A stretch of 64,000 nt of DNA from positions 126,023-190,022 of the IMG/VR virus record IMGVR_UViG_3300033489_000001, one strand, 5' to 3'. This stretch comes from a virus (lineage: Duplodnaviria; Heunggongvirae; Uroviricota; Caudoviricetes). The notes below the pieces were generated by a model. That model was not told where the DNA came from. It made no database searches and saw nothing but the letters and a program-made list of their open reading frames with translations. Both the position numbers and the translations under genes were made by a program. Positions 12,099-27,310 of the stretch are shown here, piece after piece (the first letter of the stretch is position 1; every line of letters starts with the position of its first letter).

Positions 12099-12150
12099 GA
12101 ATTTTTTCTCCTTCCCCTATTACTACACCGGAGGGAGGAAAAGTTCAAGG
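12099..12150 (-). promoter_or_regulatory. M1 promoter motif with short leader
   Basis: Consensus 18 nt upstream of ATG 12098. Confidence 0.6.
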
Positions 12151-12234
12151 AATTCTTAAAAATCCCCGCTTTTTTCTTTATTTATAAAGATCGCGGAAAT
12201 TATCACTCCCACCCTCTTTTCAAGATAAAAGCCC

Positions 12235-12903
12235 CTAATGCTTCCGGTGCATGTCTATGATCGACCGGAGAATAAACTTCAACTCCCTTATGTCCTTCAA
12301 AGAATGAGCATAAGGAATCAGATTTTGAAACTTTCGCTTGTCTTTCTCTATATCCCCTGGAGCCCACGCCGGATTGAGAACCATCCCCTCCCAATTAACC
12401 GAATCGTAAAGCTCTACTATATCAGCCTTTATCTTCGGCAGCTCCCTAATGAATCGCTCCGCAACTTCCTTATACCCCACCGCTAACCCTAGCATATCCC
12501 CAACCCGAGCTTGATCCCGCCTCTCCCTGAATAACCCCTGAATAGATGCTAACCCAGAAGCCCCCTCATCATATGAGGCCACAAACTCCTTAGCAGCATC
12601 CCCACGCTCAAAAAATCGGTCGCCAATGAATGGCCACCACGTTTTGAAAAGAAATCGACTCACCCCCCGTATATCAGCGTTCTTGCTCTTTTTAATAAGA
12701 AAAGTGCTGAAAATATCCTTCCCATCAACTCTATTAAAAGCTTCCTCTAATTCATTGAGCCGGTCACCAAGCTTCGCCGTCTCAGGCCCAACCCGCAATA
12801 TCTCGTCAGCTTTCATGAAGCGTGCCGCTACCCGTACATTAGATGCTGTTTCCATAACCCTAAGCGTACCATTAAATGAAAAATCTTGGCTTTTCGTTTG
12901 CAT
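12235..12903 (-). CDS. hypothetical protein
   Basis: 222 aa. Confidence 0.55.
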   Translation of the reverse strand: MQTKSQDFSFNGTLRVMETASNVRVAARFMKADEILRVGPETAKLGDRLNELEEAFNRVDGKDIFSTFLIKKSKNADIRGVSRFLFKTWWPFIGDRFFERGDAAKEFVASYDEGASGLASIQGLFRERRDQARVGDMLGLAVGYKEVAERFIRELPKIKADIVELYDSVNWEGMVLNPAWAPGDIEKDKRKFQNLIPYAHSLKDIRELKFILRSIIDMHRKH

Positions 12904-13139
12904 TTAATGGATTTCTAATACAACTTCAAAACAGACCCTAACAAAGGTCTACAGCTCTTTGAAAAAGATAAGCGGTTCTAAAGAAAGTCTTCCTTTAGGT
13001 AAAATCTGAAAAGCGAGAGCTGTTTGGAGAAGGTTTTATACCTTCGCCGATAATTGAAACGTCCAGAAATTACCGGCCCTAAAAAATTTCCGCTTTCTCA
13101 AAAACCCCTACACCATTTCAAAAAAGGGGTATCCCCCAC

Positions 13140-14500
13140 GAAAATCAAAGAGCCTATTTATAGCCTCTAGGTTCGTTTTTTCCTTCCGCCCACTAACGAG
13201 CGAAGCGAGTATCAGCCAAAAGCCGAGAGGAGCCTATTTATGTCCCACTCATAAAGAAAGTGGGCTTTCTTTGTAGCTGCACTCTATCCAAAAGAAGATA
13301 AAAATCAAACCGTTTATTTATCAAGATCCGTACTGGACCATATAATCTGCCCCCTAAGCGTCACCTCCAACCCTCCTTCCCGCTCACAAACCCCAAAAGT
13401 ACCCTGCCTCGTCTCTACCCCAACTACATCGTATACCCTGGAAAGTAATACGTTTTGCGTCGTTTCAATCGCTACTAAATGCTTACCGTCACCTATCCGT
13501 ATCTTCATGGCGTTCCCTCTCATATCTAGGTGAAAAGACCTATACCCCAAAATCCCCCTATCCGAAAATTTCAACCATAAAAAAATTCCGCCTCCCCCTG
13601 AAAACCTACCCCTTTCTAAAAAGACCCCCTCCCCTTTATCTCGCTCCCTATGTAACTCGCTAACGCTCAAACCTTTCCTTAAATGACCTTTCAGAATTCC
13701 TCCGTTTAAGACCATGCGTATACTGAATGTGCCAATTACGGATAATAGCAAATTTTAAAAAAATAATGAAGCGGTTTTCCCCAATTTTTACCGCAAATAT
13801 CTTTATAAATAAAGATGGGATTAATCCGAGTAAATGGTATGGATCTTGATCATATAGCAACTGTAGTTGATCAAATCAAGATCAGCATACAACGAGTAAA
13901 TGGCACGGATCTTGATGATATTACAACTGTAGTTGATCAAATCAAGATCGAGGAACAAGGGCGATGGCACGACTATGCCCCTTCGGGGCGGGTCAAGCCG
14001 TGGCCATAGTTGTTCGATGATCTTTATTTATAAAGACTGTAGGTCATTAAAATAAATAAGGCCGATCTTGATGATATTGCAACTGTAGTTGATATGATCA
14101 AGATCGCGGGGGCTTAAAAGAGGCGGTGGTATAAAGGGAAAAGGGCATAGTCAAGCCCCTTAGTATACCTCCGGCCCTTCGGGCCGGGCAAGAACCGGTG
14201 GGCATAGACCATGCCAAGGATTATTGAAACCGATCTTTATTTATAAAGATCAGAAAAAATAAATTGGCATGGATCTTTATTTATAAAGATGGGGGCTATT
14301 ATTTGAAGCCAAGCTTGTGTTGGGCCTCGTGCGGCATAGATACCGGCTCCGGGAGCCGGGTCAGGGCGGCCTCCGGCCGCCAAGGACTAAGGCATCTGGC
14401 TATAGGGCTACTGGTTTCTTGCCCCTACCATCTGGGCGATAGGCTAGGGGCTTCGGGGGCACTATGTTAAGGGCCTCGAGCCGGACGATGTCCTTCTGTA
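13140..14500. repeat. repeat-dense non-coding region A
   Basis: 3 copies of a 42 bp GATCTTGAT...ATCAAGATC palindrome (13842-13883, 13908-13949, 14055-14106), >=4 M2 palindromes, UUCG-loop GC hairpins; no convincing CDS. Confidence 0.7.
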
Positions 14501-14819
14501 ACTCTAGTTTGTTACTGATGGCTGCCACCTTCCGCCCCCGGTCATTGGAGACAGGTCCTTCCATGATTTGGTCTAGAGCAGTTACCGCTTGCTGGATGAA
14601 GTCCGTAAACTCCTCCAAGGTCCTTCTCTGCTTTAGGGCTTCACACCGCCACGCCTTAGCATCATCTAGGGGAATGTTTGGGTTTTTTCCTTTTAGTTTT
14701 TTTACGCATAGTTCTTTCGGTAGTATACTGACCTTTAGAGGAAGCTGTAAAGGCTGCCTCTGTAATTGAAACATGCGGACGCCCTGACCTGGAAGCCGCC
14801 CAAGAGCGATTGCCTTCAA
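14400..14819 (-). CDS. hypothetical protein
   Basis: 139 aa; 3' end runs into the repeat-rich region. Confidence 0.35.
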   Translation of the reverse strand: MKAIALGRLPGQGVRMFQLQRQPLQLPLKVSILPKELCVKKLKGKNPNIPLDDAKAWRCEALKQRRTLEEFTDFIQQAVTALDQIMEGPVSNDRGRKVAAISNKLELQKDIVRLEALNIVPPKPLAYRPDGRGKKPVAL

Positions 14820-14874
14820 CCTCCACTCTATGAAAAGCGTGGAGATTGAAGATTATTTTACCTTTTCAGAGAGT

Positions 14875-15507
14875 TTATTTACGCCTTTCTTTGGCTTCCC
14901 GACGCTCTCGAGCCTCAATCAAATCTCTGCCCCATGAGCCTTGCTCATCGCACCTTTTGCCATACCGGCGATGCAAGGTTTTCATAGTTTCTAAGTTATC
15001 ACCGCAAAGGTGATCCCAGATGTCGTACCACGCCGTATGGAATCTTTGGCCCTTAGCGGGTTTCCAAATCAAGGCATCCGCATGGACGATGGTTAGGACC
15101 TTCCCGGCTCTTTCGGCCACCTGGGACAGCCAGGTGCTTACTAACGTAATGACATCGGCATCTAGTTCTATCACGGTCACGCTTTGAACTTCGGGCGTTA
15201 AGAGACAGGCACGGGTCACCATACCAAGGCCTAAGCCAGCGATTAGAACATGCCCGTGGGCGCTTCTAATAAACCCCAGGTGGTCACTAATCTCATCCGG
15301 GGTATCGCTCATGACTACGCCCCGTTGAGTGTGGTAAAGCCCCGTATAAGTCCCCTCCGGCACCCCCCGGCCCCGGCTGCTACTAATGGCCGCTCGCAGC
15401 TCTTCAAACTTTGCCGCTTCTGCACTCACAGTAAACCGTCTGATGCTCCACTGCCCCAATTGCCCCACCGGTACGTCAACCTTATATTGGTCCGTGTATC
15501 GTTCCAT
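14875..15507 (-). CDS. class I SAM-dependent methyltransferase-like (spermidine-synthase-like fold)
   Basis: 210 aa; VLIAGLGLG glycine motif and VTVIELD acidic strand; ATG abuts promoter motif. Confidence 0.65.
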   Translation of the reverse strand: MERYTDQYKVDVPVGQLGQWSIRRFTVSAEAAKFEELRAAISSSRGRGVPEGTYTGLYHTQRGVVMSDTPDEISDHLGFIRSAHGHVLIAGLGLGMVTRACLLTPEVQSVTVIELDADVITLVSTWLSQVAERAGKVLTIVHADALIWKPAKGQRFHTAWYDIWDHLCGDNLETMKTLHRRYGKRCDEQGSWGRDLIEARERREAKERRK

Positions 15508-15542
15508 ATCTATTACTACACCGGAGGGGAGAATAATTCAAG
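15508..15542 (-). promoter_or_regulatory. M1 promoter motif
   Basis: Abuts ATG 15507. Confidence 0.7.
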
Positions 15543-15545
15543 TTT

Positions 15546-15974
15546 TTACGTCATTTTCTTGATATTTCGGGCTATAGCTTGAAACAGCAAGAAAGCTACC
15601 ATAAACCCCATGAAATTCCTAGGTTCAAGGAACACGCAGGAAAGAGCGTTAAGGGCCATCAAGCCAAGGTACAGGTAACCAGCCCATTTCTTCATGAACC
15701 ACATACCAACCACACAAATTGAGAGGAGTACTACTCCAATTATGATTAGTATGGGGGATAGTTGCAGTCTCTCCATTACAGATGCGTCGGCAACAGCAAA
15801 GCTAATAAGGAGTAGTACTGAGGCGACGACGCTAAGGATGCACACTACGGTCACTCCGAGTGGGCGTTCTAAAGTGCCTACCTTCTGCACTGGTGGGGCT
15901 CCTGGTTCAGGTGCAACTGTAGTAGTAGCTATGGGTTGGATTTCGGACGAATCATTTTTTTGTTCGTTGGGCAT
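15546..15974 (-). CDS. multi-pass membrane protein
   Basis: 142 aa, 3-4 hydrophobic helices; 3x18 bp tandem repeat upstream. Confidence 0.55.
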   Translation of the reverse strand: MPNEQKNDSSEIQPIATTTVAPEPGAPPVQKVGTLERPLGVTVVCILSVVASVLLLISFAVADASVMERLQLSPILIIIGVVLLSICVVGMWFMKKWAGYLYLGLMALNALSCVFLEPRNFMGFMVAFLLFQAIARNIKKMT

Positions 15975-16011
15975 ATCTTTATTTCCTCGTTTTTAGGTTA
16001 TTCTCTCTAAA

Positions 16012-16065
16012 TTATCTTTCCTAATGATGTTATCTTTCCTAATGATGTTATCTTTCCTAATGATG
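16012..16065. repeat. 3 perfect tandem copies of 18 bp TTATCTTTCCTAATGATG
   Basis: Directly upstream of minus-strand membrane-protein gene 15546-15974. Confidence 0.85.
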
Positions 16066-16094
16066 TTATTTTTTTGAATGCTTCGTGAGTTCAA

Positions 16095-16367
16095 TCATTT
16101 CTCTACCCCTTTGCTCTCGGTAAATGTGAAAGTACCATCATCTTGAGAGACATAACCCTTTACACGCTTACCTTTGATTATCCTGTAAGCGGGTATTGTA
16201 AAATAGGTGTCGGGTATTCCACAGCGCACGGCACGGATGATGTGATCAGCACAAAGGCACCTTGCTTTACGTGTCATGCCTCCCCTTGAATAGGCGGCTT
16301 CTTCAGATTGCACCCATGTGTTATTGAGCCCTTCTATAATGTATACTTTGTAAACCATGGGTTTCAC
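16095..16367 (-). CDS. hypothetical protein
   Basis: 90 aa. Confidence 0.5.
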   Translation of the reverse strand: MKPMVYKVYIIEGLNNTWVQSEEAAYSRGGMTRKARCLCADHIIRAVRCGIPDTYFTIPAYRIIKGKRVKGYVSQDDGTFTFTESKGVEK

Positions 16368-16675
16368 TCAAAGTAAAAGGCCGTTACGCGGGCGTTTTGA
16401 TAATCGTAAGGCTCATGATGAATGAGTACGCCATCCAGGTTCTTGTACTCTCCACGGGCTATGTTCCGCCACTTCTCTACGCGGGAACAGTTCTGAGCAA
16501 GTGCAAAGCCGATAGGGCTCGTGCTCTGTGTAAACCCGTAGACATAGCCGTTCTTTTCCAGGTGCTTCTCTGCCTCAACCTTCGAAGCGAAAATCTCCGC
16601 CTTTTGGATTTTCTTGCCCGCGATTTTGGCAATCTCTTCCGCCGCATTCCTAACTTTTTCTACTATGGTCGGCAT
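16364..16675 (-). CDS. hypothetical protein
   Basis: 103 aa; promoter motif upstream. Confidence 0.55.
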   Translation of the reverse strand: MPTIVEKVRNAAEEIAKIAGKKIQKAEIFASKVEAEKHLEKNGYVYGFTQSTSPIGFALAQNCSRVEKWRNIARGEYKNLDGVLIHHEPYDYQNARVTAFYFE

Positions 16676-16722
16676 ATCTAACTCCTTTCTTGTTACTACA
16701 CCGGAGGGGAGAATAATTCAAG
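16676..16722 (-). promoter_or_regulatory. M1 promoter motif
   Basis: Upstream of ATG 16675. Confidence 0.6.
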
Positions 16723-17018
16723 TTTTTAGAGAGCTTCTTGAGTGGCGGCAATACATTCAAGATGGCGGCCCACGGAGGGCAACGGATCCGTCCCCTCGTA
16801 ATGTTTACTGCCATCCTTACCATTTCGAATGTAGTCCGGCCGTCCAATCCTGAATAAAAGGCATTCAGGCCGACCGCTCACGCCGGTTCGAATTAAGAAA
16901 CGACATTTCCCACAAAAAGGTCCCGTGGCCTCTATCTTTAAACCATATACAGTTAAAAGAATCATCTAAATCTCCCTCAAAAATTGAGCTTTTCGATTAT
17001 ACCCCCGCCAGTATTCGT

Positions 17019-17237
17019 TTACTTTACGTCTACGTACTCAAACACCATCGCAAGCACGTCATCGTAGCTGCCTGCCGCTATAGCGCGATTTCTAAACTCT
17101 TGAGCTTTTTCTGCTTGCCCAGCACGCTTGAGTACATTGCTTACCCGGCCAATAATGGCAAATACGTTGCCGTCTTCACCTATCAATTTGCACACGGGCT
17201 TGGTTTCTGCATTTACATTTTGAGCATTTTGTTTCAT
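17019..17237 (-). CDS. hypothetical protein
   Basis: 72 aa; ATG abuts promoter motif. Confidence 0.6.
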   Translation of the reverse strand: MKQNAQNVNAETKPVCKLIGEDGNVFAIIGRVSNVLKRAGQAEKAQEFRNRAIAAGSYDDVLAMVFEYVDVK

Positions 17238-17270
17238 CTATTACTACACCGAGAGAAGGAATAATTCAAG
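17238..17270 (-). promoter_or_regulatory. M1 promoter motif
   Basis: Abuts ATG 17237. Confidence 0.7.
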
Positions 17271-17348
17271 TTTTTTAAGAATTTGCTTTGTACCCAGCTA
17301 ATGTTTAATGTAACTTAGCGGAGAGGGAATCTAAAAATTCCTCGATAA

Positions 17349-17459
17349 TTGAAATTGCCTAAGGTTTCTTTTATTATAAGCTGCTCATTAGGGGAGCCCC
17401 TGTCGCGTCTCATGGACCTCCCCCGATCCCGGACGCTCTGACGGGGCTCCCCTTTTTAT
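17349..17459 (+). ncRNA. candidate small structured RNA: promoter TTGAAA-N17-TATTAT, then long GC-rich hairpin with T5 tail
   Basis: -35 at 17349-17354, -10 at 17372-17377; imperfect stem GGGGAGCCCCTGTCGCGTC/GACGCTCTGACGGGGCTCCCC (17391-17452) then TTTTTAT. Confidence 0.4.
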
Positions 17460-17527
17460 CCGTATGAATGTTTTTGACTCTATAGGGGGCAAGGTCGGAT
17501 AAAAATTCTTCACTCAATTCTAAGAAC

Positions 17528-17561
17528 TTGAATTATTCTTTCCCCCGGTGTAGTAATAGTT
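17528..17561 (+). promoter_or_regulatory. M1 promoter motif (plus orientation)
   Basis: TTGAATTATTCTTTCCCCCGGTGTAGTAATAGTT then ATG 17562. Confidence 0.7.
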
Positions 17562-17894
17562 ATGCCAAATAACTATGGGGAGGTTGTAATGAGGGAAGAG
17601 AAACTTGTTGAGCGAAGAGGTAAGACAGACTGTGCCGACGAAGAAGTTCGCGTTCAAGTAACCAGGCTTGGGGATGATTACAAAGTGTCAATACAATCTA
17701 CCAAGACAATTTCGACCGTAACCGCGACTTCTAACAGTACGTTAGCACCTGCCTTCACCGCTGCTCTTAGGGCTGCCATCTTGCAAGGCATCAGCTTTTC
17801 TTCGGCTGTGATAACCACAAAACGTGCCTATCAAGCGGCCGGAAACGTGCTTTTTTCAGATGAGCCCTCTTATGACTGTTATAAAACAAGCTAA
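17562..17894 (+). CDS. hypothetical protein
   Basis: 110 aa; ATG abuts promoter motif. Confidence 0.6.
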   Translation: MPNNYGEVVMREEKLVERRGKTDCADEEVRVQVTRLGDDYKVSIQSTKTISTVTATSNSTLAPAFTAALRAAILQGISFSSAVITTKRAYQAAGNVLFSDEPSYDCYKTS

Positions 17895-18159
17895 AATAAG
17901 AATCAAGCCGGACGCCCAACGCTTAGAACAAGCTATTGTTATACATGAGGTATCCACTGGGTATTTGGCCCGTTTGGGCCGTCAAGAAATATCTCGTGAT
18001 TCAAGTCTTGACCGGGTTATGAAAGATGTGCAGTCATGGTGCAAAATAAGATGTGCGTCTAATTATCCCGAGATATACATTGTAAATCTTCCTAGTAGCA
18101 TTGCTTTACTTGACCCACAAGGCAATCAATTGACGGAATGGCGCATAAACTCTCATTAG
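17824..18159 (+). CDS. hypothetical protein
   Basis: 111 aa; may start at a later Met. Confidence 0.45.
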   Translation: MPIKRPETCFFQMSPLMTVIKQAKIRIKPDAQRLEQAIVIHEVSTGYLARLGRQEISRDSSLDRVMKDVQSWCKIRCASNYPEIYIVNLPSSIALLDPQGNQLTEWRINSH

Positions 18160-18172
18160 GAAAAAAGGAAAT

Positions 18173-18385
18173 ATGAAAAACTACATTACTCACGACGGAA
18201 AAACGGTATCGAGTGCAGAGGTACGAAGAGCAAGTGCAGAGGACCATTGTTGGAAGTGCGGTAAGCCCCTGGCAATCATCCGTAACAAGGATGCTTATGA
18301 CAGCATTGAAGAATGCATAGCTGACGGCCTAGATCCTAACAAGGAGTGCGGAGCCGCCTGTATAAATTGCGGAGCTGAATCCTAA
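18173..18385 (+). CDS. Zn-ribbon small protein
   Basis: 70 aa, CWKCG...CINCG. Confidence 0.5.
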   Translation: MKNYITHDGKTVSSAEVRRASAEDHCWKCGKPLAIIRNKDAYDSIEECIADGLDPNKECGAACINCGAES

Positions 18386-18470
18386 GCATCACTTTTTCCC
18401 CGGCGTCCGAATCTTAGTTTATTCTTCTTCAATCCCTCCTAGCTCAATTACATCTTACCTTCGAAAAAAC

Positions 18471-18545
18471 TTGAATTAATTCCCCCACCGGTGTAGTAAT
18501 AAAAGTAAAGTAAAATTCTACTAACAATCTAACAGGGAGATCAGT
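18471..18545 (+). promoter_or_regulatory. M1 promoter motif with ~45 nt Shine-Dalgarno-containing leader
   Basis: TTGAATTAATTCCCCCACCGGTGTAGTAAT. Confidence 0.6.
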
Positions 18546-19133
18546 ATGTCAAAGTCAGTGAAAGAGATAATTGAGGGACAGGTAGATGAACTTCGAGTAG
18601 CCACTATGGAAGTTCACAAAATACAGGAGGCCAGTGCCAAGCAGTTGGAAGGCGTAACTAAAGCGATAGGGGAGAGCCTCAAGTCCCCTATAAGGCGGAT
18701 GTGGGCCAAGTTGGCCGGTAAAGAAGCCACTCTTGCGCCTCTAGAAGAGATCGTGATGGACTTAGGGGAAGTTACGAATTCGTTAACGGAGTGTGTACAT
18801 GCCGTGGATTCGATAGAAGCGATCGGTCCCGGAAACATGCTGAAAGCCGTCACGGAAATTCATGAGGTGGCCGAAAGAAGCACGCTGCGGCTCAGGACCT
18901 TAACCTTAACCATGGAAGAAACTCTCAAGTCGCCCGTAGCGAAGTTAGCGGCCATGGCGACCGGGAAGAGGGCATTCTTCAACAAGCTGATTGACATAGA
19001 GAATAATCAAGCTTCGATCGTGGCTTGCCTAGCAGATTGCGTCAGCGGCGTGGCACAGATGAAGGAAGTTGCGGATGTGCAACGCGGAGTGACCTCCATT
19101 CCGGCTCCGGCCGCCGCCCAAGAGGGCAAGTAA
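18546..19133 (+). CDS. hypothetical protein
   Basis: 195 aa; promoter motif and GGGAG Shine-Dalgarno upstream. Confidence 0.65.
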   Translation: MSKSVKEIIEGQVDELRVATMEVHKIQEASAKQLEGVTKAIGESLKSPIRRMWAKLAGKEATLAPLEEIVMDLGEVTNSLTECVHAVDSIEAIGPGNMLKAVTEIHEVAERSTLRLRTLTLTMEETLKSPVAKLAAMATGKRAFFNKLIDIENNQASIVACLADCVSGVAQMKEVADVQRGVTSIPAPAAAQEGK

Positions 19134-19218
19134 AGCTAAACGTTTCCGGCTGGGGTGTGTCTCCCCCAGCCCAATTCGTGTTTCAAACAGAAATCCTATG
19201 TAGTCTGAGGTGCCTTAG

Positions 19219-19461
19219 ATGACAGATCACTTTTCCATTGGTAATGACGAACTTGAAAAGCTGCCCGAGGCGGAAGAGCTGGCTCAATGTCCGCGTTGCT
19301 TAGGCGTGCATCCCATCGTGTGGAGCACCGATCCCAAAGGGCAGCCAACTCGCGTCTTGGGGACCGTTCTATGTGAAGGAAAGCACTGGTTGGTGGCCGT
19401 GGCCGGGAAGTTAATACCACCCAACACATTCAAGAGCCCGAAGAGAGCCGCGACGGCCTGA
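19219..19461 (+). CDS. hypothetical protein
   Basis: 80 aa. Confidence 0.45.
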   Translation: MTDHFSIGNDELEKLPEAEELAQCPRCLGVHPIVWSTDPKGQPTRVLGTVLCEGKHWLVAVAGKLIPPNTFKSPKRAATA

Positions 19462-19469
19462 AGTAAGAG

Positions 19470-19787
19470 TTGAGTATGTCTAAAAAACCTGACGAAACAG
19501 TTAGAATGATCTGGATCTATCTCGAAGTAAAACGGCAGTTTCTAGAACTCAAGCGTACCGATCCCCGGTTGGATTGGAATTACCCTCCTACGCCTCCAGG
19601 AAAGGTCTACTTTCGCAAAGGCTATAACCCAAAGAGTGGATTTAATTATTGCTGCTGGGGCCATACCAAAGCCGAAGCGGCGGCCAAATACAATGAACTG
19701 TGGTTGAAACAAATCAAAGAGATCCAGGAACGAGCGGACAGAGAAATAGCCGAGCTACGAAAGCGGCTTGCAGCCGAAAACGTTTAA
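19470..19787 (+). CDS. hypothetical protein
   Basis: 105 aa. Confidence 0.5.
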   Translation: MSMSKKPDETVRMIWIYLEVKRQFLELKRTDPRLDWNYPPTPPGKVYFRKGYNPKSGFNYCCWGHTKAEAAAKYNELWLKQIKEIQERADREIAELRKRLAAENV

Positions 19788-19788
19788 G

Positions 19789-19989
19789 TTATGCCCTCAT
19801 GAAAAGAGCGTTCAACTCCGCCTTTAGGTCTTCCGTAGTAGGGGCCACACGACTGAAATCGTCCAAAAGGGCCAGCACTAACACAACGTCGATGGTGTTT
19901 ACAGTCACATCATACCCAAGCTCTTTGCAATATCGGGCGAAACGAACCTCAGTGGGATTTTTTGGGTCAATTTTCAGTATAGCTTCCAT
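19789..19989 (-). CDS. hypothetical protein (paralog of 30955-31155, shared YCKELGYD)
   Basis: 66 aa; ATG abuts promoter motif. Confidence 0.6.
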   Translation of the reverse strand: MEAILKIDPKNPTEVRFARYCKELGYDVTVNTIDVVLVLALLDDFSRVAPTTEDLKAELNALFMRA

Positions 19990-20024
19990 ATCTATTACTA
20001 CACCGGAGAGAGAAAAAATTCAAG
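19990..20024 (-). promoter_or_regulatory. M1 promoter motif
   Basis: Abuts ATG 19989. Confidence 0.7.
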
Positions 20025-20025
20025 T

Positions 20026-20268
20026 TTAAAGGCAGGGGTTTAGGTGTTTAAAGATAGAAAGCTGGCCGCCTTTTTTCTGTTGACAATACAGCTCGTTAGC
20101 GTGCCTTACGGCGACGGTTTTATTATTGAATCGCTGATCGGATTGCCCGGCCGGAGTGAAGACGCTCCACTTGGAATCATCCAAGCTAAGAATGAGATCG
20201 TAATAGAATCCGCCCCAAACGCGAGCTGTCAAACCCGTACGAGTCTTTTTCCAACTAAGCCGGTCCAT
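20026..20268 (-). CDS. hypothetical protein
   Basis: 80 aa; ATG abuts promoter motif. Confidence 0.55.
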   Translation of the reverse strand: MDRLSWKKTRTGLTARVWGGFYYDLILSLDDSKWSVFTPAGQSDQRFNNKTVAVRHANELYCQQKKGGQLSIFKHLNPCL

Positions 20269-20342
20269 ATCTATTACTACACTGAAAACCGAGAAAATTC
20301 AAGATCAAAAACTTGAATTATTCCCTTCTCCGGTGTAGTAAT
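20269..20342. promoter_or_regulatory. back-to-back divergent M1 promoter pair
   Basis: -35 elements form the inverted repeat ATTCAAGATCAAAAACTTGAAT; minus-side ATG 20268; plus side has no gene for ~200 bp. Confidence 0.65.
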
Positions 20343-20538
20343 AGAAGAGTACTAAGGACAAGTTAAACTTGAACGGGTGAGTCATTCTTAGTGACACAGA
20401 CAGCGTAGGGATGTGTATGATAATGATGACTGCTTCCTTACTAAATTGTGTTTTACCCTATAAGAAAACAAACTTGTGGTGTACAACTCTTTCTCACTCC
20501 CGGCTGTATTAAGGGATAACTTATGAAGGAATCTAGCA

Positions 20539-20727
20539 ATGTCTATAGCAATCTATGAAGAGGGACAAGAGATAGATCGAGTATCCGAAATGCCTAAAGC
20601 ATATGATGTAATAACGAACCGCTTAGAAGTAAGTTCCATACGCTTGCTGTTACAAGAAAACTTAGAACAAGGCGTTCGCTGGACCCATCAAGGCTCGGGT
20701 CGTTCTATTGAAGTGCTCTTCGAATAA
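20539..20727 (+). CDS. hypothetical protein
   Basis: 62 aa. Confidence 0.4.
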   Translation: MSIAIYEEGQEIDRVSEMPKAYDVITNRLEVSSIRLLLQENLEQGVRWTHQGSGRSIEVLFE

Positions 20728-20750
20728 CAAAAACCTAAGATCAGAAAAAG

Positions 20751-21044
20751 ATGAAAATAAACATCCTAAAAATAAATATCCTAAAAATATACCGCCGAAT
20801 CATAAAAGCTTCGATTCATAATAGGGGTGTACGATTAGTAAGGGACGACATTGTAAATTTAGGAATACGTTCCTTAGGCAAATCCGACGAAGTCTGGCAA
20901 AAGGTGTTTCAAGCTTACTTCCACTTAGAAGGAAAGCTCACTTTAACCAAGGAAGAAGTCGCCCACCTGGCCAAAACTATTGAACTACGAGACACCCTGA
21001 GGCCGCCCGCCATGAGAGGGAAGAGCCTGTGGCCGTTAGCCTAA
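20751..21044 (+). CDS. hypothetical protein
   Basis: 97 aa; 5' end contains a 17-nt direct repeat. Confidence 0.4.
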   Translation: MKINILKINILKIYRRIIKASIHNRGVRLVRDDIVNLGIRSLGKSDEVWQKVFQAYFHLEGKLTLTKEEVAHLAKTIELRDTLRPPAMRGKSLWPLA

Positions 21045-21078
21045 GCAAAGCGTAATATACTATCAAAGGAATTTTGAT

Positions 21079-21282
21079 ATGGGTGACATTACTATATTTT
21101 TCAAAGATGGCCACGTTATTGGCTCCTGCCCTGTTGGTCACGAACAGGAGTGGGTCCAGCCTGGGAAAGGTAGGGAATCACAGAGCTATAACTCTACTAA
21201 ACGCTCAACCGATGAATGTTGGCATAATTGGGCAAGGGCTCGTGTTCACGTATCTGAAGAAATAGCCCAACGGGAACTTTGA
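21079..21282 (+). CDS. hypothetical protein
   Basis: 67 aa. Confidence 0.35.
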   Translation: MGDITIFFKDGHVIGSCPVGHEQEWVQPGKGRESQSYNSTKRSTDECWHNWARARVHVSEEIAQREL

Positions 21283-21317
21283 CAGCTAAAGCCGTGTTTT
21301 AGCCACAACCAGTTCAT

Positions 21318-21391
21318 ATCTATTATTACAAAAAGAGAATAATTCAAAATCAAAAACTTGAATTATTCTCTTCTGCGGTGTAGTAATAGAT
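21318..21391. promoter_or_regulatory. back-to-back divergent M1 promoter pair
   Basis: ATTCAAAATCAAAAACTTGAAT; plus-side ATG 21392; minus side followed by only a 23-codon ORF. Confidence 0.65.
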
Positions 21392-21580
21392 ATGGCAAAT
21401 TCATGTCTATGCCCAGACGCACGAATGGTACACAAAATCCGTGAACTCTATACGGCCGTGACGTCTAATTGTGAGCAAGACCTTCAAAATCGCTGCCACA
21501 TTGGAACGTGGCTATGCCCTCTTTTTATAGAACCCCCTATAGTGATTGATGAGAGAAAAGAAGACCATGAAAAGGTATAA
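21392..21580 (+). CDS. hypothetical protein
   Basis: 62 aa; ATG abuts promoter motif. Confidence 0.55.
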   Translation: MANSCLCPDARMVHKIRELYTAVTSNCEQDLQNRCHIGTWLCPLFIEPPIVIDERKEDHEKV

Positions 21581-21800
21581 TTACCCTCTGGTTTGCAAAG
21601 CCACCTCGAGGGTTGGAAGCTGCCACATCAACCGGACGATCGGAGGCCAGGGGTTGTCTTACAACGAGGTCCTAAAGAAAATTACTATGGAGCGCGAGCG
21701 GGATATGCATGACATTCGGGAGTTTGAAGGTCAGATGTTGAGCATTCAAGACCTTACCGGCGCGGTGCATCAACGGAAGATTACACTAGACTTAGCTTGA
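21546..21800 (+). CDS. hypothetical protein
   Basis: 84 aa. Confidence 0.45.
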   Translation: MMREKKTMKRYNYPLVCKATSRVGSCHINRTIGGQGLSYNEVLKKITMERERDMHDIREFEGQMLSIQDLTGAVHQRKITLDLA

Positions 21801-21807
21801 GAAAAAC

Positions 21808-21841
21808 TTGAATTATTCTCTTCCTCGGTGTAGTAATAGAT
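21808..21841 (+). promoter_or_regulatory. M1 promoter motif
   Basis: Abuts ATG 21842. Confidence 0.7.
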
Positions 21842-22129
21842 ATGGGTAAAGACGAAAGAATTCCATTGAAGATTAAAGTGGGGGAGCTGTTTACCGGTCG
21901 CAAATCATTGCGTCCTTATAAGACCTGCTACAGCATAACGTCTACCTATATGGACGAAGTTTATACACACGGCTATCACGTTACCGCCGAATCCAAAACC
22001 GATATTACGATGGTGTTACGGGCGTTACTCATACGTCAAGGGACCACTTGGGCAGAAGCTAACAAACGGGCGGTGGCCGTTGCTAAAATGACTCCGACCA
22101 GCTGGGGCACCTATGATACCCTCTTGTAA
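21842..22129 (+). CDS. hypothetical protein
   Basis: 95 aa; ATG abuts promoter motif. Confidence 0.6.
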   Translation: MGKDERIPLKIKVGELFTGRKSLRPYKTCYSITSTYMDEVYTHGYHVTAESKTDITMVLRALLIRQGTTWAEANKRAVAVAKMTPTSWGTYDTLL

Positions 22130-22148
22130 AAAAGAAAGAATCTAACCG

Positions 22149-22445
22149 ATGGTTATAAAGTTTCGAGTAACAACCCATGACGGAGAAAATTATGTGGGGC
22201 CAATTCAAGGGAACGGCGGAAAGATAGGCAACTCCGCTCTTTACTTAGGATTGGCCGCCACCCGTGATATCGCTTTGAGGGACCTGCGTAAGCAAATTGG
22301 ACGGGCTAAAGACCATAGAAGCATACAGATCTACGAGCCTAAGCCGTTCCACGTGGCTATCTATCCGGACTACAGTGACGAGGGCGATGGAGAGCCCTTA
22401 GCTGTCAGTCTGCTCGATGATCACTTTGAACTAGCTCCGGAGTGA
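22149..22445 (+). CDS. hypothetical protein
   Basis: 98 aa. Confidence 0.5.
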   Translation: MVIKFRVTTHDGENYVGPIQGNGGKIGNSALYLGLAATRDIALRDLRKQIGRAKDHRSIQIYEPKPFHVAIYPDYSDEGDGEPLAVSLLDDHFELAPE

Positions 22446-22461
22446 GCCTAAAGGATAGGCG

Positions 22462-22845
22462 ATGGCTTACTGCAAACGCTCTGGATATTGCTGCATCATG
22501 TATGACGTAATTATTGCCATCGAAGAGCCAGATTGTCAGCTCGGACTTTATCACAAACCTACTGGCGTTCGTTGCCCGCACCTGAGCTTCGAGCCGGAAA
22601 CTGGAGACGCCGTCTGTGCTGTTCATGATGAACCTTGGTTCCCACAAACCCCGTGCTACTCTTTTAATAACCCGGACATTGATCCGGACGCCTGCTGTCA
22701 TAAAGGCGGCTGCCGCATTGGACCGTACGTAAGGGAAAAAGAAGGTGGCTGCTTAGCCGAGTTCATGCAAGTCCACTCTAAAGGTCAAGTTGAAAGGTTA
22801 GGTGCTTGGTCGGACTGGCAAGATGGCGTAGAAGAAGATGATTAA
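22462..22845 (+). CDS. Cys-rich hypothetical protein
   Basis: 127 aa, many Cys/His. Confidence 0.5.
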   Translation: MAYCKRSGYCCIMYDVIIAIEEPDCQLGLYHKPTGVRCPHLSFEPETGDAVCAVHDEPWFPQTPCYSFNNPDIDPDACCHKGGCRIGPYVREKEGGCLAEFMQVHSKGQVERLGAWSDWQDGVEEDD

Positions 22846-23040
22846 AACGCTTGGAGTTCAAAGCCCAAATTGTATCGATTGTCTCCTTTCTTTTAGGGAT
22901 TATAAGAAGCGTGCTCGTTGCAATCATCCCGAAGCCAATAGGATGAAAGTACGCATCTATTGGTCGGAGCCCCCGGAGAACTGCCCTCTAAGAAAAGGGC
23001 CTTTAATCATTAAACGGGTCTTCTAATTGGAGAAACACAG

Positions 23041-23232
23041 ATGACGCTCTTTGCAGTAATTTATGATAAACTCTTTCCTACATGTGATTGTTGCGGCAAA
23101 AAAGTGCTCAGATGGACTAAGCTTGTTGAATATACCCCTTGCATAATACGTGCTCATGGTTGTGGGCCTATTGATTATTTCAAAAGCAAGAAGCTTTGTT
23201 TGAGATGTAATAAATATTTTGAGTACTTTTAG
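23041..23232 (+). CDS. Zn-ribbon small protein
   Basis: 63 aa, CDCCGKK...CLRC. Confidence 0.4.
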   Translation: MTLFAVIYDKLFPTCDCCGKKVLRWTKLVEYTPCIIRAHGCGPIDYFKSKKLCLRCNKYFEYF

Positions 23233-23335
23233 ATTGTATTGGAAAGTCCTTCCTCCTAAGCGATGATAGTCCCGGCTCACTTGACCAAAACAGGCTTGTG
23301 GGCTATCCCCAAACAAATCTTAAGGAGTAAACTCA

Positions 23336-23692
23336 ATGCCTGAAGATAAAGACCTCGCCTACCGTCTTCAAAAAATAGTCTCTAATATCCCTGACCTCAA
23401 CTCCAGAGCTAAGATCTTCCTTGAACAGACGCTTATACCAACCCTAGAAGCCTTCATGGACCAAGACCTGGATTTCTTATCTATAGTGGCCCTGAGCCAT
23501 GACCTCGCCATTCAAGATTGGTTCCATACCGATTATGATAATGTCCTCTATGAAGCTTCCGGCCGCCTCCAAGCCATCGCTGGGCTACTATCCGCTTATG
23601 CCCTCCAGAGCGATATGAAGCCCTCTGAAGAAGATTGTGAAGCTTGCAACTGCCCTGATTGCTCTCCTACCGAAAAAGAGGGCGCTAACTAA
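23336..23692 (+). CDS. hypothetical protein (paralog of 27311-27652)
   Basis: 118 aa; shared RLQxIV...VQDWFH...YEASGRLQA...CxCPxCS...KEGAN. Confidence 0.55.
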   Translation: MPEDKDLAYRLQKIVSNIPDLNSRAKIFLEQTLIPTLEAFMDQDLDFLSIVALSHDLAIQDWFHTDYDNVLYEASGRLQAIAGLLSAYALQSDMKPSEEDCEACNCPDCSPTEKEGAN

Positions 23693-23707
23693 AAAAGGAG
23701 AGTACTC

Positions 23708-24112
23708 ATGACCTGTCATTACCCTACCCTATTAGCAGAAGCCGAAAGCAAACTCCTAAAACTTGGATGGGAAAAAACCAATGGCTCCTATTCTTCGGGT
23801 AAAGATAAAAGCATAGGTTACCCCCTAACCCTAGCTCTGGAAGCTGAAAGCAAACTCCTAACTCAAATGGTGCTCGACTTGAAAAACTTCGCCCCACAAG
23901 AACCCGCTTCCATAGAAAAGGTCAACACTACATATCAGCATGAGGATGTCCTTACACGCCTCCATAGCCTAGAACTCAGCATGGCCGCCCATAAACAACA
24001 AATAAGTAAGCTCGATACGTTTAGAGCAACCCTCCTTCAAGGAATAAAAGCGTCCCTCCTCCCGGATGCCCAAGAGTGGCTTGCAGAAGAAAACCCAAAG
24101 CCAAATAAATAA
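23708..24112 (+). CDS. KLGW-family protein (paralog family A)
   Basis: 134 aa; LxKLGW...Y...ALEAE motif shared with 27695, 35847, 36324, 38405, 39621. Confidence 0.55.
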   Translation: MTCHYPTLLAEAESKLLKLGWEKTNGSYSSGKDKSIGYPLTLALEAESKLLTQMVLDLKNFAPQEPASIEKVNTTYQHEDVLTRLHSLELSMAAHKQQISKLDTFRATLLQGIKASLLPDAQEWLAEENPKPNK

Positions 24113-25150
24113 ATAAATAGCCTCATCTTTATTTATAAAGATCCCTACCCTTTATTTATAGCCTCATCTTTATTTATAGCCTCTGGCTATTTTTTAATTT
24201 CAAAAATCCGTACCTCCCTATTTTTATAATTGGATAGCCGCAATAAATGGTACGGATCTTGATTTGATCAACTACAGTTGCTATATCATCAAGATGGGGC
24301 TATTTACTCTCTCTATTCCGATCTTGATTTGATCAACTACAGTTGCTATATCATCAAGATCCCTCGAACGACAATGGCATAACCTTTGCCCGGCCTTCGG
24401 GCCGGGCGTGGTGAGCCTTAGGTCACTCGAATATTCTTCCTATCTTTATTTATAAAGATCCTCATAATTATTTTCATCTTTATTTATAAAGATCCCACGT
24501 ATACACGAGCCATGCTCCGCCCCGTAGGGGCGGCTGGCATTGTCAATGTAAAATTCACATGCCTGCTGAATAAAATTGTCAGGCCGGAAATACCGTTACC
24601 ATTGTAATCTAACAGTGCGAAATCATTTATTGTTTTGTACAAGAACCATGCCAATATATTTTCCATATTTTCCAACCTTTTCAGAAAATAAGTTTACATT
24701 CTGACTGTACAGGATCTTGATAAATAGGGTTTTGAAAAATAGAAGTAATCAAATAAATTGGATCAATCTTTATAAATAAAGACAGGATGAATAATCTGAG
24801 GGTAATGGGGCTTACCCGGCCGGGCCTTCGGGGGGCACGGCAAGGTTATTCCCATTACCTAGACTACCGTAGAGTGGAAGGAGGTGCATAAGCGACAACC
24901 GAGGCATGGCCCTGGGGCTGGGTGATAAGGCTTAGGGCGTGTCATAGAGGCTTGGGGGCGGAATTGACGCTGTTACTAGTACTAGATAGGGTTTAGGGCG
25001 GGATTAGGGGATTGAGGGGGCTCTGATAGGGGTATGGAAGGCTTTAGGCAACCTTCTTGGAACAAAGGGGGGGGTTGATTAAATAAAAGGTCAAAGGCAA
25101 ACTAGCTTGGTGTTATTTAGAGATTGGAAAGAGCAAGGTTGAGAAAGGGA
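24113..25150. repeat. repeat-dense non-coding region B, inverted relative to region A, followed by a G-rich tract
   Basis: 42 bp palindromes in opposite orientation at 24255-24295 and 24311-24352, >=4 M2 palindromes, UUCG hairpins, TTAGGG-like G-runs at 24850-25090. Confidence 0.7.
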
Positions 25151-25160
25151 TAAAGTTGCT

Positions 25161-25427
25161 GTGTTCAGATTCCACATAAAGGATTACATAGGGCAAAGAG
25201 TCTGCGAGCACGTTAGACTAAAACTAGATTTTCCTACTGATGTACAAAATGCGGGTGAAAAGGTTAGGTACACCTTGGGTCACGAAGGAACTCAATGCTT
25301 CTGTAATTTGAGACTTCTTACGGGGCTTTCAGGGGAAGATTTGTTTCAAGCTTTAGAGGAGCTTAGGGACAAAGGAGTGGTTATTTTCTTAGGGGGGCCT
25401 TTTCGACTATTTAGTGGGAAAAGTTAG
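25161..25427 (+). CDS. hypothetical protein
   Basis: 88 aa ORF after G-rich tract. Confidence 0.3.
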   Translation: MFRFHIKDYIGQRVCEHVRLKLDFPTDVQNAGEKVRYTLGHEGTQCFCNLRLLTGLSGEDLFQALEELRDKGVVIFLGGPFRLFSGKS

Positions 25428-25643
25428 TTGGGAGATATGAATGACGCGGCGTAAGAAAGCTCCTCCTCCCCCTCTTGGCATCATTGTTCCCTATGTGAGT
25501 TTCCTTTACGCTATTGCCTGGGGCTTCTTTCTATCTTCGGGAGACGTGATTCTGTCCGACGTGTGGTTTTCATTATATGCCTAGGGAGCTTCCCCCTGCT
25601 TTGGGACAGCTTTTAAACTGGCTAGAGCATCCGCATAAAAGGG

Positions 25644-25678
25644 CATCTTTATTTATAAAGATAATTACGGGATTTTTT
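25644..25678 (+). promoter_or_regulatory. M2 palindromic motif ATCTTTATTTATAAAGAT + AATTACGGGATTTTT
   Basis: Second conserved upstream element class. Confidence 0.45.
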
Positions 25679-25734
25679 GAAATAAGGGAAGCTGAACCTT
25701 GATAGGCCAGGGTTCCGGTGTAATACTAGCTTGT

Positions 25735-25768
25735 GATCTTTATTTATAAAGATAATTACGGGATTTTT
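25735..25768 (+). promoter_or_regulatory. M2 motif
   Basis: Repeat of the 25644 element, ~70 nt upstream of ATG 25810. Confidence 0.45.
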
Positions 25769-25809
25769 GGGTTAGGCAGAGGTGCAGAATCTTTTCTTTT
25801 TTAGGAATT

Positions 25810-26196
25810 ATGAATACAAAGCGTCCTGATTGTTTAGCTTGTGGGGTATGTTGTTGGGCTATGGAAGAGGCCAAGCTACTGGATTCTTGGGGTCGGAAGC
25901 ACATTGTAGAGGTTCCCTGGAATGATCCTCACGCTTGGGTAGGGACTTACGGAGCCATTGAGACCAAGTGGCGAACGATGAAGGCTGGTCCTTTGAAAGG
26001 GCGGGAGATTCTTATTTGTGAAGCTTTACGAGGCTCGATGCTTCATCGAGTTAAATGCAGTATTTATGAAAAGAGGCCTTCGGTTTGTAAGGTGACTTTT
26101 CGGCCTGGGGACTTAGCATGTTTGAAGTTGAGGAGGAGGCTTGTAAGTGAAACATACAAGGTGTCTAGACAAGAAGACGCCACAAGAGGTCCTTGA
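25810..26196 (+). CDS. YkgJ-family CxxCxxCC zinc/iron-chelating domain protein
   Basis: 128 aa; CLACGVCC ... CSIYEKRPSVC pattern. Confidence 0.6.
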   Translation: MNTKRPDCLACGVCCWAMEEAKLLDSWGRKHIVEVPWNDPHAWVGTYGAIETKWRTMKAGPLKGREILICEALRGSMLHRVKCSIYEKRPSVCKVTFRPGDLACLKLRRRLVSETYKVSRQEDATRGP

Positions 26197-26334
26197 GGTT
26201 TTAGAGCCTTTAGAAAGCCTCCAGTTCCTATCTTAGATGAACAGAGCTAATCTTGGCTTTTCCGCCTATAAAGGCAAAGGGGAGCCATTTAGAGCAAGTG
26301 CTGGGCATTACGAAAGCGATTAGAAAGGAAAGAT

Positions 26335-26604
26335 ATGATTCCGAAACATCTTCTTCCGCGTACCGTGTTACTAGAAGTTGTCAACCACGAGGAGTACGTT
26401 GAATACGAATCTGAACTTGACCCTGACGGCAAACAAACTTTGAAGCGTAGCCTTGATGGCAAGCCCATTAAAATTGAAGGTTCCGAAACCGCTTTCCTTC
26501 ATTTGAAAGCCCTTGATGGTAAAATCATTCGAGCGCAGATCTCGCATGAAAATCTTGACAAAATCTTAGCTCTCAGATTTCCTGAAGACTTTGACAAGAA
26601 ATAA
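26335..26604 (+). CDS. hypothetical protein
   Basis: 89 aa. Confidence 0.45.
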   Translation: MIPKHLLPRTVLLEVVNHEEYVEYESELDPDGKQTLKRSLDGKPIKIEGSETAFLHLKALDGKIIRAQISHENLDKILALRFPEDFDKK

Positions 26605-26607
26605 AGG

Positions 26608-26636
26608 CTATTTATAAAGATAATTGCGGGCTTTTT
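26608..26636 (+). promoter_or_regulatory. M2 motif (half palindrome) + GGTGTAGAGCTATT
   Basis: Upstream of ATG 26668. Confidence 0.45.
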
Positions 26637-26667
26637 CGGTGTAGAGCTATTATGGAAGCTCCAAATT

Positions 26668-26937
26668 ATGACGAAAGACAAGTTTGAGACCTTAATGCGT
26701 GAGATCACTATAGCGAAGGCGAAGCTTGAAGCTGCTAATATGGCCGTAGATCGAATATGTCTTTCCGAGAAATACCTAGATGCCGTCCGTGGCCATCTAG
26801 GTCATTTTAAGAGAATTAATGGCAAACGGTCTTTACTTGGGTATCCGGTTTACAGGTCCTTGGGTTCTTACGTTAGGTCTTCGGCTAAATTTGGCAAGAA
26901 GGCCATGTATATAGAGTTTTCAGGGCTAGCGGATTAA
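26668..26937 (+). CDS. hypothetical protein (MTKDKFETLM paralog 1)
   Basis: 89 aa; tandem paralog of 26996-27265; palindromic promoter motif upstream. Confidence 0.55.
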   Translation: MTKDKFETLMREITIAKAKLEAANMAVDRICLSEKYLDAVRGHLGHFKRINGKRSLLGYPVYRSLGSYVRSSAKFGKKAMYIEFSGLAD

Positions 26938-26943
26938 TTCATG

Positions 26944-27265: not shown

Positions 27266-27272
27266 TTCCAGC

Positions 27273-27310
27273 CATCTTTATAAATAAAGATATTTAGCGG
27301 ATTTTTCAAG
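27273..27310 (+). promoter_or_regulatory. M2 motif
   Basis: Same palindrome before ATG 27311. Confidence 0.45.

Follow-up and report, generated by a model that had tools for sequence, protein, structure and literature searches.

Two repeat-dense non-coding regions as probable DNA control regions of a huge-phage-like genome

Two repeat-dense non-coding regions, here called A and B, bracket a 10-kb segment in a 64,000-nucleotide stretch of DNA (the window) from IMG/VR record IMGVR_UViG_3300033489_000001. Among the systems that they call to mind, lambda OL and OR are palindromic operator clusters that flank the immunity region, F sopC is built of 43-bp units that each hold a short inverted repeat, and ColE1 RNA II is an R-loop- or transcript-primed origin comparable to those of T4. 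For huge phages, to our knowledge, neither the start of replication nor the timing of early transcription is known, and almost none of these phages have been cultured. Bacillus phage SPP1 has two similarly organised origins ~13 kb apart that are served by one binding protein (PMC6316719). At the origins of T4, R-loop RNA primes one-directional leading-strand synthesis (PMC3016281), and the injection-stop region (iss) of T5 is a large untranslated, repeat- and palindrome-dense region beside early genes with strong promoters (bioRxiv 10.1101/866236).

The window corresponds to ~159.3-223.3 kb of a 411,476-bp metagenome contig (ENA ERZ27256988:k141_5351839) from an uncultivated, phage-like genome. 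It holds ~135 open reading frames (ORFs), mostly small, and its two longest ORF-free gaps are A (13511-14399, 889 bp) and B (24113-25160, 1048 bp); the median gap is 53 bp. Domain searches covered 134 window ORFs and the 10-kb flanks on each side, and strand skew was readable over 82 of the 411 kb. Because A and B hold conserved palindromes and long hairpins at a change of strand composition, they probably serve as DNA control regions rather than as parts of an invertible or mobile segment. They are very likely arrays of conserved protein-binding sites that work at the DNA level. The reading that we favour, tentatively and at less than even odds, is that of paired replication-origin-like regions bound by one DNA-binding protein. 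The locus offers conserved, sequence-defined candidate cis-elements exactly at a composition boundary, which makes the question of huge-phage replication and early transcription testable; if A and B are only operator arrays, they would be a tidy and unsurprising example of a phage regulon.

Compared with SPP1 oriL and oriR, which are bound by gp38, the locus likewise has two cis regions ~10-13 kb apart with repeated sites beside an AT-rich unwinding tract, and, as a further parallel, one SPP1 origin is placed between genes, in a long stretch with transcription signals at either side (PMC6316719). However, SPP1 uses direct repeats, its oriL lies inside the initiator gene, and it has no sequence similarity to A or B, which have palindromes in two spacing classes, long GC hairpins, G-rich flanks and no recognisable initiator gene. 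In a parallel with T4 oriF and oriG, A and B place an AT-rich tract before an outward, extremely G-rich non-template strand, a composition that would favour R-loops, whereas the T4 origins lack palindromic site arrays and no promoter was identified at A or B. A and B resemble T5 iss in being repeat- and palindrome-dense, non-coding and next to early genes; in contrast, T5 iss lies in direct terminal repeats and has eight ordered DnaA boxes, which are not enriched in the window.

Binding-site arrays and hairpins in A and B

The 42-bp element has the form GATCTTGAT-N24-ATCAAGATC, and its five matches in the window (0.00 expected) lie as the first-pass annotation of this DNA had placed them, three in A and two in B. 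That annotation had also reported clusters of a short palindrome, and these were recovered as 13 sites of the 18-bp palindrome ATCTTTATTTATAAAGAT, four in A, four in B and five others (12174, 25645, 25736, 26945, 27274). All 26 strand-matches of the palindrome (0.2 expected) fall within 12174-27291, with none elsewhere in the 64 kb, and it has no orientation except for a central TT/AA, mostly with TT on the plus strand in both regions. The half-site common to the two elements, GATCTT[G/T]AT, has 21 matches (1.6 expected), 20 of them within 12.1-25.8 kb, and the 10 kb adjoining each end of the window contain none. Its two copies are separated by 2 bp in the 18-bp palindrome and by 24 bp in the 42-bp element, about two helical turns more. 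The reported right half of the 42-bp palindrome at 60691-60718 is present, but it belongs to a degenerate full copy (60677-60718) in which a TCTTTAT arm of the 18-bp type is joined to an ATCAAGA arm of the 42-bp type; since this copy mixes both arm types, the two half-site types appear to be interchangeable. On the simplest reading, one dimeric DNA-binding protein would recognise GATCTTNAT half-sites at 2-bp or 24-bp spacing. Altogether, seven sites in A and six in B, plus isolated half-sites, form repeated, clustered, non-coding candidate binding sites. The features are listed below, with conservation given relative to L003, a 4.2-kb Logan contig (ERR14794643) with ~80-89% DNA identity that is the sole relative found for part of A.

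12174-12191, minus strand: 18-bp palindrome, ~70 bp upstream of the minus-strand early promoter cassette 12110-12155
13315-13333, minus strand: isolated half-site block GTACGGATCTTGATAAATA, inverted counterpart of 24707-24726
13330-13700, minus strand: outward flank of A; extremely G-rich minus strand, plus-strand skew -0.5 to -0.76 (at 13320-13700), loose G-quadruplex motifs
13710-13830: AT-rich tract of A (GC 0.28-0.33), with a sign change in local GC skew
13799-13816, minus strand: 18-bp palindrome, followed on the minus strand by ATTTGCGG, an outward extension as at 25645-27291
13842-13883, plus strand: 42-bp element A1; its interior holds the palindrome CAACTGTAGTTG
13908-13949, plus strand: 42-bp element A2, 66 bp after A1; A1, spacer and A2 make up the 109-bp block that is inverted in B
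13950-14015: long imperfect palindrome/hairpin S1; GC apex, UUCG loop, z=-4.8, arms co-vary with L003
14020-14037: 18-bp palindrome, identical in L003
14064-14105, plus strand: 42-bp element A3; 38/42 positions kept in L003
14144-14215: long hairpin S2; apical stem kept in L003, loop flipped there from UUCG to GAAG
14233-14250 and 14273-14290: pair of 18-bp palindromes with conserved 22-bp spacer; 55/58 positions kept in L003
14343-14381: two GC hairpins adjoining the end of ORF 14400-14819
24125-24142: 18-bp palindrome directly past the stop codon of ORF 23708-24112
24255-24296, minus strand: 42-bp element B1, with one mismatch
24320-24361, minus strand: 42-bp element B2, 65 bp after B1
24364-24430: long hairpin S3, counterpart of S1; z=-4.5
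24442-24459 and 24476-24493: pair of 18-bp palindromes in B
24517-24533: GC hairpin S5, CCGCCCC-GTA-GGGGCGG
24590-24800: AT-rich tract of B (GC 0.23-0.32), with a duplex stability among the lowest in the window
24707-24726, plus strand: isolated half-site block GTACAGGATCTTGATAAATA, located within B's AT-rich tract
24766-24783: variant 18-bp palindrome on the outer margin of B's AT-rich tract
24795-24863: long hairpin S4, between the AT-rich tract and the G-rich flank; z=-3.3
24860-25160, plus strand: outward flank of B; ORF-free, extremely G-rich, skew +0.26 to +0.74 (+0.4 to +0.74 at 24920-25160)
25645-27291, plus strand: four 18-bp palindromes (25645, 25736, 26945, 27274) and a half copy (26604), each followed by AWTTASCGGGNTTTTT and upstream of a small ORF
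60677-60718, plus strand: degenerate sixth 42-bp element; left arm TCTTTAT of the 18-bp half-site type

Hairpins S1-S4 are 65-70-nt imperfect palindromes with GC apices, three of them with z of -3.3 to -4.8, and the GC hairpins with UUCG loops that had been noticed earlier are present in both regions. The two segments of lowest duplex stability in the 64 kb are both in B, and A is likewise high in this ranking. Most of the loose G-quadruplex motifs of the window are those of the outward G-rich flanks, and the canonical motif at 24989-25020 in the flank of B is the only canonical one on the plus strand. The outer part of the G-rich flank of A may encode a 65-aa ORF (13314-13510). No T-run follows S1-S5, so that the pairing of a GC hairpin with a U-tract that marks an intrinsic terminator is missing from them, whereas the terminator-like family GTCCCAC...GTGGGCTTACTTTGA of the same genome does carry a T-run. 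Terminator-like hairpins with a conserved loop, GTCCCACTCAATAAGTAGGTGGGCTTACTTTGA, were also seen on the plus strand at 13242, 28723, 42764, 59586, 60470, 60642 and 61532; the 13242 copy stands amid minus-strand genes, just outside A. Another of the least stable DNA segments of the window, 15994-16080, consists of four tandem copies of the 18-nt unit TTATCTTTCCTAATGATG in the gap between ORFs 15546-15974 and 16095-16367.

Two other origins of the repeats were considered and rejected. GATC is neither avoided nor enriched genome-wide, and its local excess is the repeats themselves, which disposes of a GATC (Dam/SeqA) cluster. A 64-aa ORF (13815-14009) crosses A1 and A2 as a 22-aa repeat and is an artefact of the palindromes: the copies in B lie outside any ORF; furthermore, one copy of the 42-bp element in L003 has a 1-nt deletion, indicating that the element is non-coding.

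A and B had been described as inverted relative to each other, and this is correct for two blocks but not for the regions as a whole. Inverted homology was found in the 109-bp block (42-bp element, spacer, 42-bp element; 13841-13949 versus 24362-24255, 89% identity) and in the half-site block GTAC(A)GGATCTTGATAAATA (13333-13315 versus 24707-24726, 19-20 bp). In contrast, TATTTATAGCCTC lies on the plus strand in A and B alike, as do TAAATGGTAYG to the left of the first 42-bp element in both regions and the UUCG loops (5/5), and the module of GC hairpin and two palindromes (14171-14290 versus 24389-24493) scores 37 in direct orientation (z=19) and 28 when inverted. The plus-strand order is the same in both regions, namely flank, 42-bp element, spacer, 42-bp element, long hairpin and palindrome; only the 109-bp block is flipped, and its own inverted arms delimit it. 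The true mirror symmetry lies in the outer architecture: going outward, each region has an AT-rich tract and then a strand that, read in this direction, is extremely rich in G. Relative to this G-rich outward flank, the 42-bp elements have a single orientation in A and B. An inverted segmental duplication of genes was rejected, as no paralogue pairs are mirrored around A and B.

Conservation, DNA-level action and strand composition

Nothing similar to the locus at the DNA level was found among GenBank phages or in IMG/VR. Five DNA patterns and one protein searched against IMG/VR returned no relatives; matches to the outer arms were rejected because they are located in coding DNA, and matches to GATCTTTATNNATAAAGATC were rejected as AT-rich terminators from unrelated phages. 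A scan of JGI metagenomes for the element gave chance matches only, all without the left arm. The flanking proteins 12235-12903 and 25810-26196 had no useful homologues, and the single match sits in a different gene context. With no counterpart in any collection searched, the motif family would be a new sequence family of an already known kind of element.

In the alignment with L003, 118/125 positions in the sites (94%) are identical, versus 195/257 (76%) in the intervening DNA (Fisher p=4e-6). The three 18-bp palindromes keep 53/54 positions and the 42-bp elements 65/71, whereas spacers and hairpin arms keep 73-79%. Judged from this alignment with the only relative found, purifying selection acts on the sites. 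Despite differences at 18 positions, S1 forms a stronger hairpin in L003 (-52.6 versus -30.7 kcal/mol); several of its base pairs are altered on both sides, which are compensatory changes that keep the pairing. The two GC hairpins at 14343-14381 are missing from L003 and are therefore probably dispensable.

The elements function at the DNA level, because the palindromes fold no better than shuffled sequence, no Rfam family matches the elements at gathering or permissive thresholds, and one L003 copy carries the 1-nt deletion. The flip of a UUCG loop to GAAG in L003 is likewise evidence of dyad symmetry in the DNA rather than of a strand-specific RNA. The 18-bp palindrome was rejected as an RNA terminator, since its folding equals that of shuffled sequence and no U-tract directly follows it. 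That the elements act instead as RNA, as nut-like antitermination or processing hairpins in leftward and rightward transcripts, is quite improbable. Such a role would explain why, in both regions, the 42-nt element is oriented one way with respect to the G-rich outward flank, and it agrees with the 9-bp stem into which that element folds (z=-2.8), with the compensatory changes in the long hairpins and with one L003 arm change that yields a G-U pair on the outward strand. However, the copy at 60677 is oriented opposite to local transcription and its arms are unable to pair, and the variable arm position (G, T or, in one L003 copy, A) resembles a degenerate protein half-site. Furthermore, hairpin stability is not consistently higher on either strand, the UUCG loops are on the plus strand in both regions, with one flipped in L003, and Rfam has no match.

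An inspection of cumulative GC skew across the replicon had been proposed as a check of the locus. Within the window the cumulative skew is lowest across 13-25 kb, but over 82 kb the measure is confounded by gene orientation. Skew at third codon positions, a more informative measure, was taken on the coding strand and gave a step at each region. The 25 leftward genes to the left of A average +0.166 [0.09, 0.25] and the 60 rightward genes to the right of B +0.152 [0.10, 0.20], whereas inner genes average -0.008 [-0.11, 0.06] (leftward) and -0.081 [-0.21, 0.03] (rightward). From the value of -0.068 for 17 leftward genes on the right arm, an orientation-independent component of ~0.11 follows. Because skew steps at A and at B while the same promoter class occurs on both sides of A, the two regions bound a strand-asymmetry domain. 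These third-position skews are not compatible with a single long-standing origin at the 17.4-kb hub; two outward-facing origins, strong outward transcription from A and B, or rapid turnover of inner genes would each fit them.

Transcription signals and the weighing of readings

The divergent transcription hub proposed for 17.4 kb was borne out. It occupies 17237..17562 inside the bracketed segment, where conserved promoter-like cassettes on the minus and plus strands diverge at 17.24-17.56 kb. The cassette (~45 nt, AAAAACTTGAATTATTC..CCGGTGTAGTAATAGATATG) has 24 copies, located on the minus strand at 1.2, 5.7, 8.0, 8.6, 9.1, 9.8, 10.9, 12.1, 15.5, 16.7, 17.2, 20.0 and 20.3 kb and on the plus strand at 17.5, 18.5, 20.3, 21.3, 21.8, 25.7, 26.6, 27.0, 54.2, 56.8 and 57.9 kb. 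Many copies have the ATG of an ORF only 4 nt past the -10-like TAGTAAT, suggesting leaderless mRNAs. Between the two divergent cassettes of the hub, at 17380-17460, a long-range GC stem (GGGGAGCCCC...GGGGCTCCCC) followed by TTTTT is terminator-like. Gene cassettes between promoter-like elements are reshuffled between the window and L003 (the homologue of 18173-18385, for example, is moved and inverted), and L003 keeps A beside the same inner gene. This pattern recalls PeSLs, the mobile regulatory cassettes that T4-type phages carry (PMC2839356). Two tandem 89-aa paralogues in the window each have their own palindrome cassette. The -10 motif of this genome (GGTGTAG...) does not occur in 12130-15511 or 21838-25716, and hence not in A or B, and a sigma-70-type scan found no more sites than in shuffled sequence.

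A replication role for A and B, one of those named in the first-pass annotation, is viable: the regions lie at the boundaries of the asymmetry domain, hold the least stable DNA and carry iteron-like arrays. As at iteron-type origins, clustered repeated sites adjoin an AT-rich unwinding tract, and as at R-loop origins, the outward non-template strand is G-rich (skew 0.4-0.76, G-quadruplex motifs). In the proposed mechanism, a protein would load onto the site array beside the easily melted AT-rich tract of each region; outward of this tract, where the strand is very G-rich and C-poor, an outward transcript or R-loop could prime the leading strand, and synthesis would leave the early-gene hub behind, proceeding leftward at A and rightward at B. 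We infer from composition and site arrangement both that replication would start at A and B and that a transcript or R-loop would prime it. The fuller proposal is unlikely, though worth stating: A and B would be twin outward-firing, transcription- or R-loop-primed origins of a huge phage, with a new initiator that reads one half-site in two spacing classes and with the flipped 109-bp block setting the firing direction. Twin origins would have the early-gene hub replicated by converging forks, head-on to its transcription, and this would account for the lagging-strand skew signature of the inner genes. Several results weigh against replication origins at A and B. No initiator (Rep, O, DnaA), helicase-loader, primase or other replication domain was found among the 134 ORFs, most of which have no recognisable family, or in the 10-kb flanks. 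DnaA boxes number 10 near-matches to TTATCCACA versus 15 expected, none of them in A or B, and no outward promoter was identified in the AT-rich tracts. Raw GC skew depends on gene orientation and drops below zero once more at 62-72 kb, so that an origin at replichore scale could not be shown over the 82 of 411 kb read. High turnover and shuffling of genes, of the kind that the relative displays, could instead account for the flat skew of the inner genes; this single relative spans part of A, and B has none. In addition, at least six promoter-like elements located outside A and B have the 18-bp palindrome upstream of them, as would be expected of a transcription-factor site. The last result keeps a regulatory-array role, also named earlier, viable. 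Nearly as likely as the origin reading is that A and B are operator and insulator arrays of a temporal-switch transcription factor, acting as looping or titration clusters with replication uninvolved; the GC hairpins would stop early transcripts, and regulated outward units, each a G-rich leader and a small ORF, would start at A and B. The palindrome with AWTTASCGGGNTTTTT is found upstream of ORFs 25810, 26668, 26996 and 27311 and of the cassette 12110-12155, its extension always points along local transcription, and the site centre lies ~40-42, 70 or 80 bp before the inferred transcription starts. The copy at 13799 bears the identical extension, pointing outward, and together with the gene-proximal copies it indicates that the palindrome binder very probably also regulates transcription. 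Dimeric transcription factors typically use perfect palindromes, and strong outward transcription could also create the skew boundary at A and B. Yet A and B lack the -10 motif of the genome, the sigma-70-type scan there equals shuffled sequence, and the 42-bp element is confined to A and B, never beside a promoter. The 13 sites and five long hairpins in ~2 kb also go well beyond the needs of known operator regions, and neither the ORFs of 14.4-24.1 kb nor those next to them yielded a DNA-binding, helix-turn-helix or repressor domain; a structure model of the candidate binding protein encoded by ORF 25161-25427 was unusable (predicted local distance difference test score, pLDDT, of 40). Lambda OL and OR are similar in that two palindromic operator clusters, kilobases apart, flank a segment with outward transcription, with single extra operators at other promoters. 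The lambda clusters, however, span ~80 bp with three sites and overlap pL and pR, whereas A and B are 0.9-1 kb long, hold hairpins as well as 6-7 sites, show no overlap with a recognisable promoter and have no detected repressor gene between them; an overlap of operator and promoter of the lambda type is absent from A and B and may exist for the single palindromes at 12174 and 25645-27291. The origin and operator readings are not mutually exclusive, because initiators often double as regulators.

The remaining readings fare worse than either of these. A and B could be centromere-like or nucleoprotein-assembly sites in the style of parS or sopC, loading a partition, condensation or packaging-related protein, and the clustering of palindromic sites in non-coding DNA at two loci, with one degenerate distant copy, recalls such sites; this is improbable, as searches of the window and the 10-kb flanks revealed no ParA, ParB or other partition domain, and it leaves the promoter-linked single sites and the AT-rich and G-rich flanks unexplained. 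The suggestions that A and B are targets of an invertase or resolvase, or terminal repeats of a nested element, did not find support. No recombinase (serine or tyrosine), transposase or integrase domain was detected among the 134 ORFs or in the 10-kb flanks, and the modules shared by A and B are mostly direct or palindromic. Inversion of the 10-kb segment by a site-specific recombinase, or by homologous exchange of the 109-bp blocks, is very improbable. The borders do carry the 109-bp inverted repeat at 89% identity with 41-bp near-exact cores, and the inner genes lack the skew of the arms, which flipping would erase. However, coding-strand skew is unchanged by inversion about the divergent hub, so flipping alone fails to explain it. 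The independent JGI contig and the ENA contig are 100% identical across the B junction and therefore have the same orientation there, and short-read contigs merely break at the 42-bp repeats. Hin, Gin and Cin systems also have short inverted repeats at the segment borders, but there a serine recombinase gene lies beside or inside the segment and the crossover sites are 26 bp; no recombinase is present here, and one orientation was seen. Least credible of all is that A and B are the terminal repeats, or scars, of a nested mobile element. Repeat-dense regions enclosing a compositionally distinct 10-kb segment would suit it, yet the repeats are internal, mosaic and mostly direct or palindromic, not outermost terminal inverted repeats; in addition, promoter cassettes of the early class continue across A and are common to the inside and the left outside of the segment, and A keeps its place beside the same inner gene in L003.

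Genome context and other features of the window

Few domains were recognised in the window (radical SAM, R2K ATP-grasp, Band 7, HD, GmrSD_N, HicB-like and RNA polymerase alpha-CTD-like), many of its ORFs match PHROG phage protein families of unassigned function, and type I-C-like cas genes lie just past its right end; this fits a huge phage. A search for tRNAs found none. An archaeal Methanoperedens jumbo element was rejected, since published ones have ~62% host-like genes and host-type replication machinery and the window ORFs are mostly without a recognisable family and include PHROG phage matches.

A CRISPR-like array (clustered regularly interspaced short palindromic repeats) occupies 63006-64000 and continues to ~66.4 kb (L023), with ~47 units that recur every 61-77 nt. 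The repeat unit reads GTTTCAATT[ACT]CAGAGGRAGAATTACTCTYCCTCCTT; like type I repeats, it has ATTGAAAC at the end of its reverse complement. Genes for Cas_Csd1, Cas7 and ResIII (Cas3-like) adjoin the array, and the cas genes span window-equivalent 67.8-72.9 kb. Divergence among the repeats is unusually high (68-93% identity), and co-variation is seen between their hairpin arms (GAGGAAGA/TCTTCCTC, GAGGGATA/TATCCCTC, GGGAGGGA/TCCCTCCC); we know of no normal CRISPR array with such divergence and co-variation of arms. A perfect (GGGA)n run at 63797-63823 on the minus strand, inside the array, is a canonical G-quadruplex motif. Solitary resemblances to the repeat (TTTCAATTAC[AG]G[AG]AGAGA...) occur far from the array at 28053-28092, 38176-38202 and 39277-39303, and they could be single repeat units or just terminators.

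Local gene duplications were seen in three sets (23336-24112, 27311-28081 and 35847-36848; 26668-26937 and 26996-27265; 38405-39313 and 39621-40382), the last with upstream blocks at 38213-38388 and 39317-39492. A second copy of the gene pair that directly precedes B lies 4 kb downstream, and the paralogues retain an unusual negative third-position skew. Finally, the plus-strand ORF 53621-54244 (207 aa) matches the RNA polymerase alpha C-terminal domain (Pfam RNA_pol_A_CTD, E=5e-7), with HicB-like and GmrSD_N ORFs nearby; going by this match, it is possibly a phage device to redirect host transcription.

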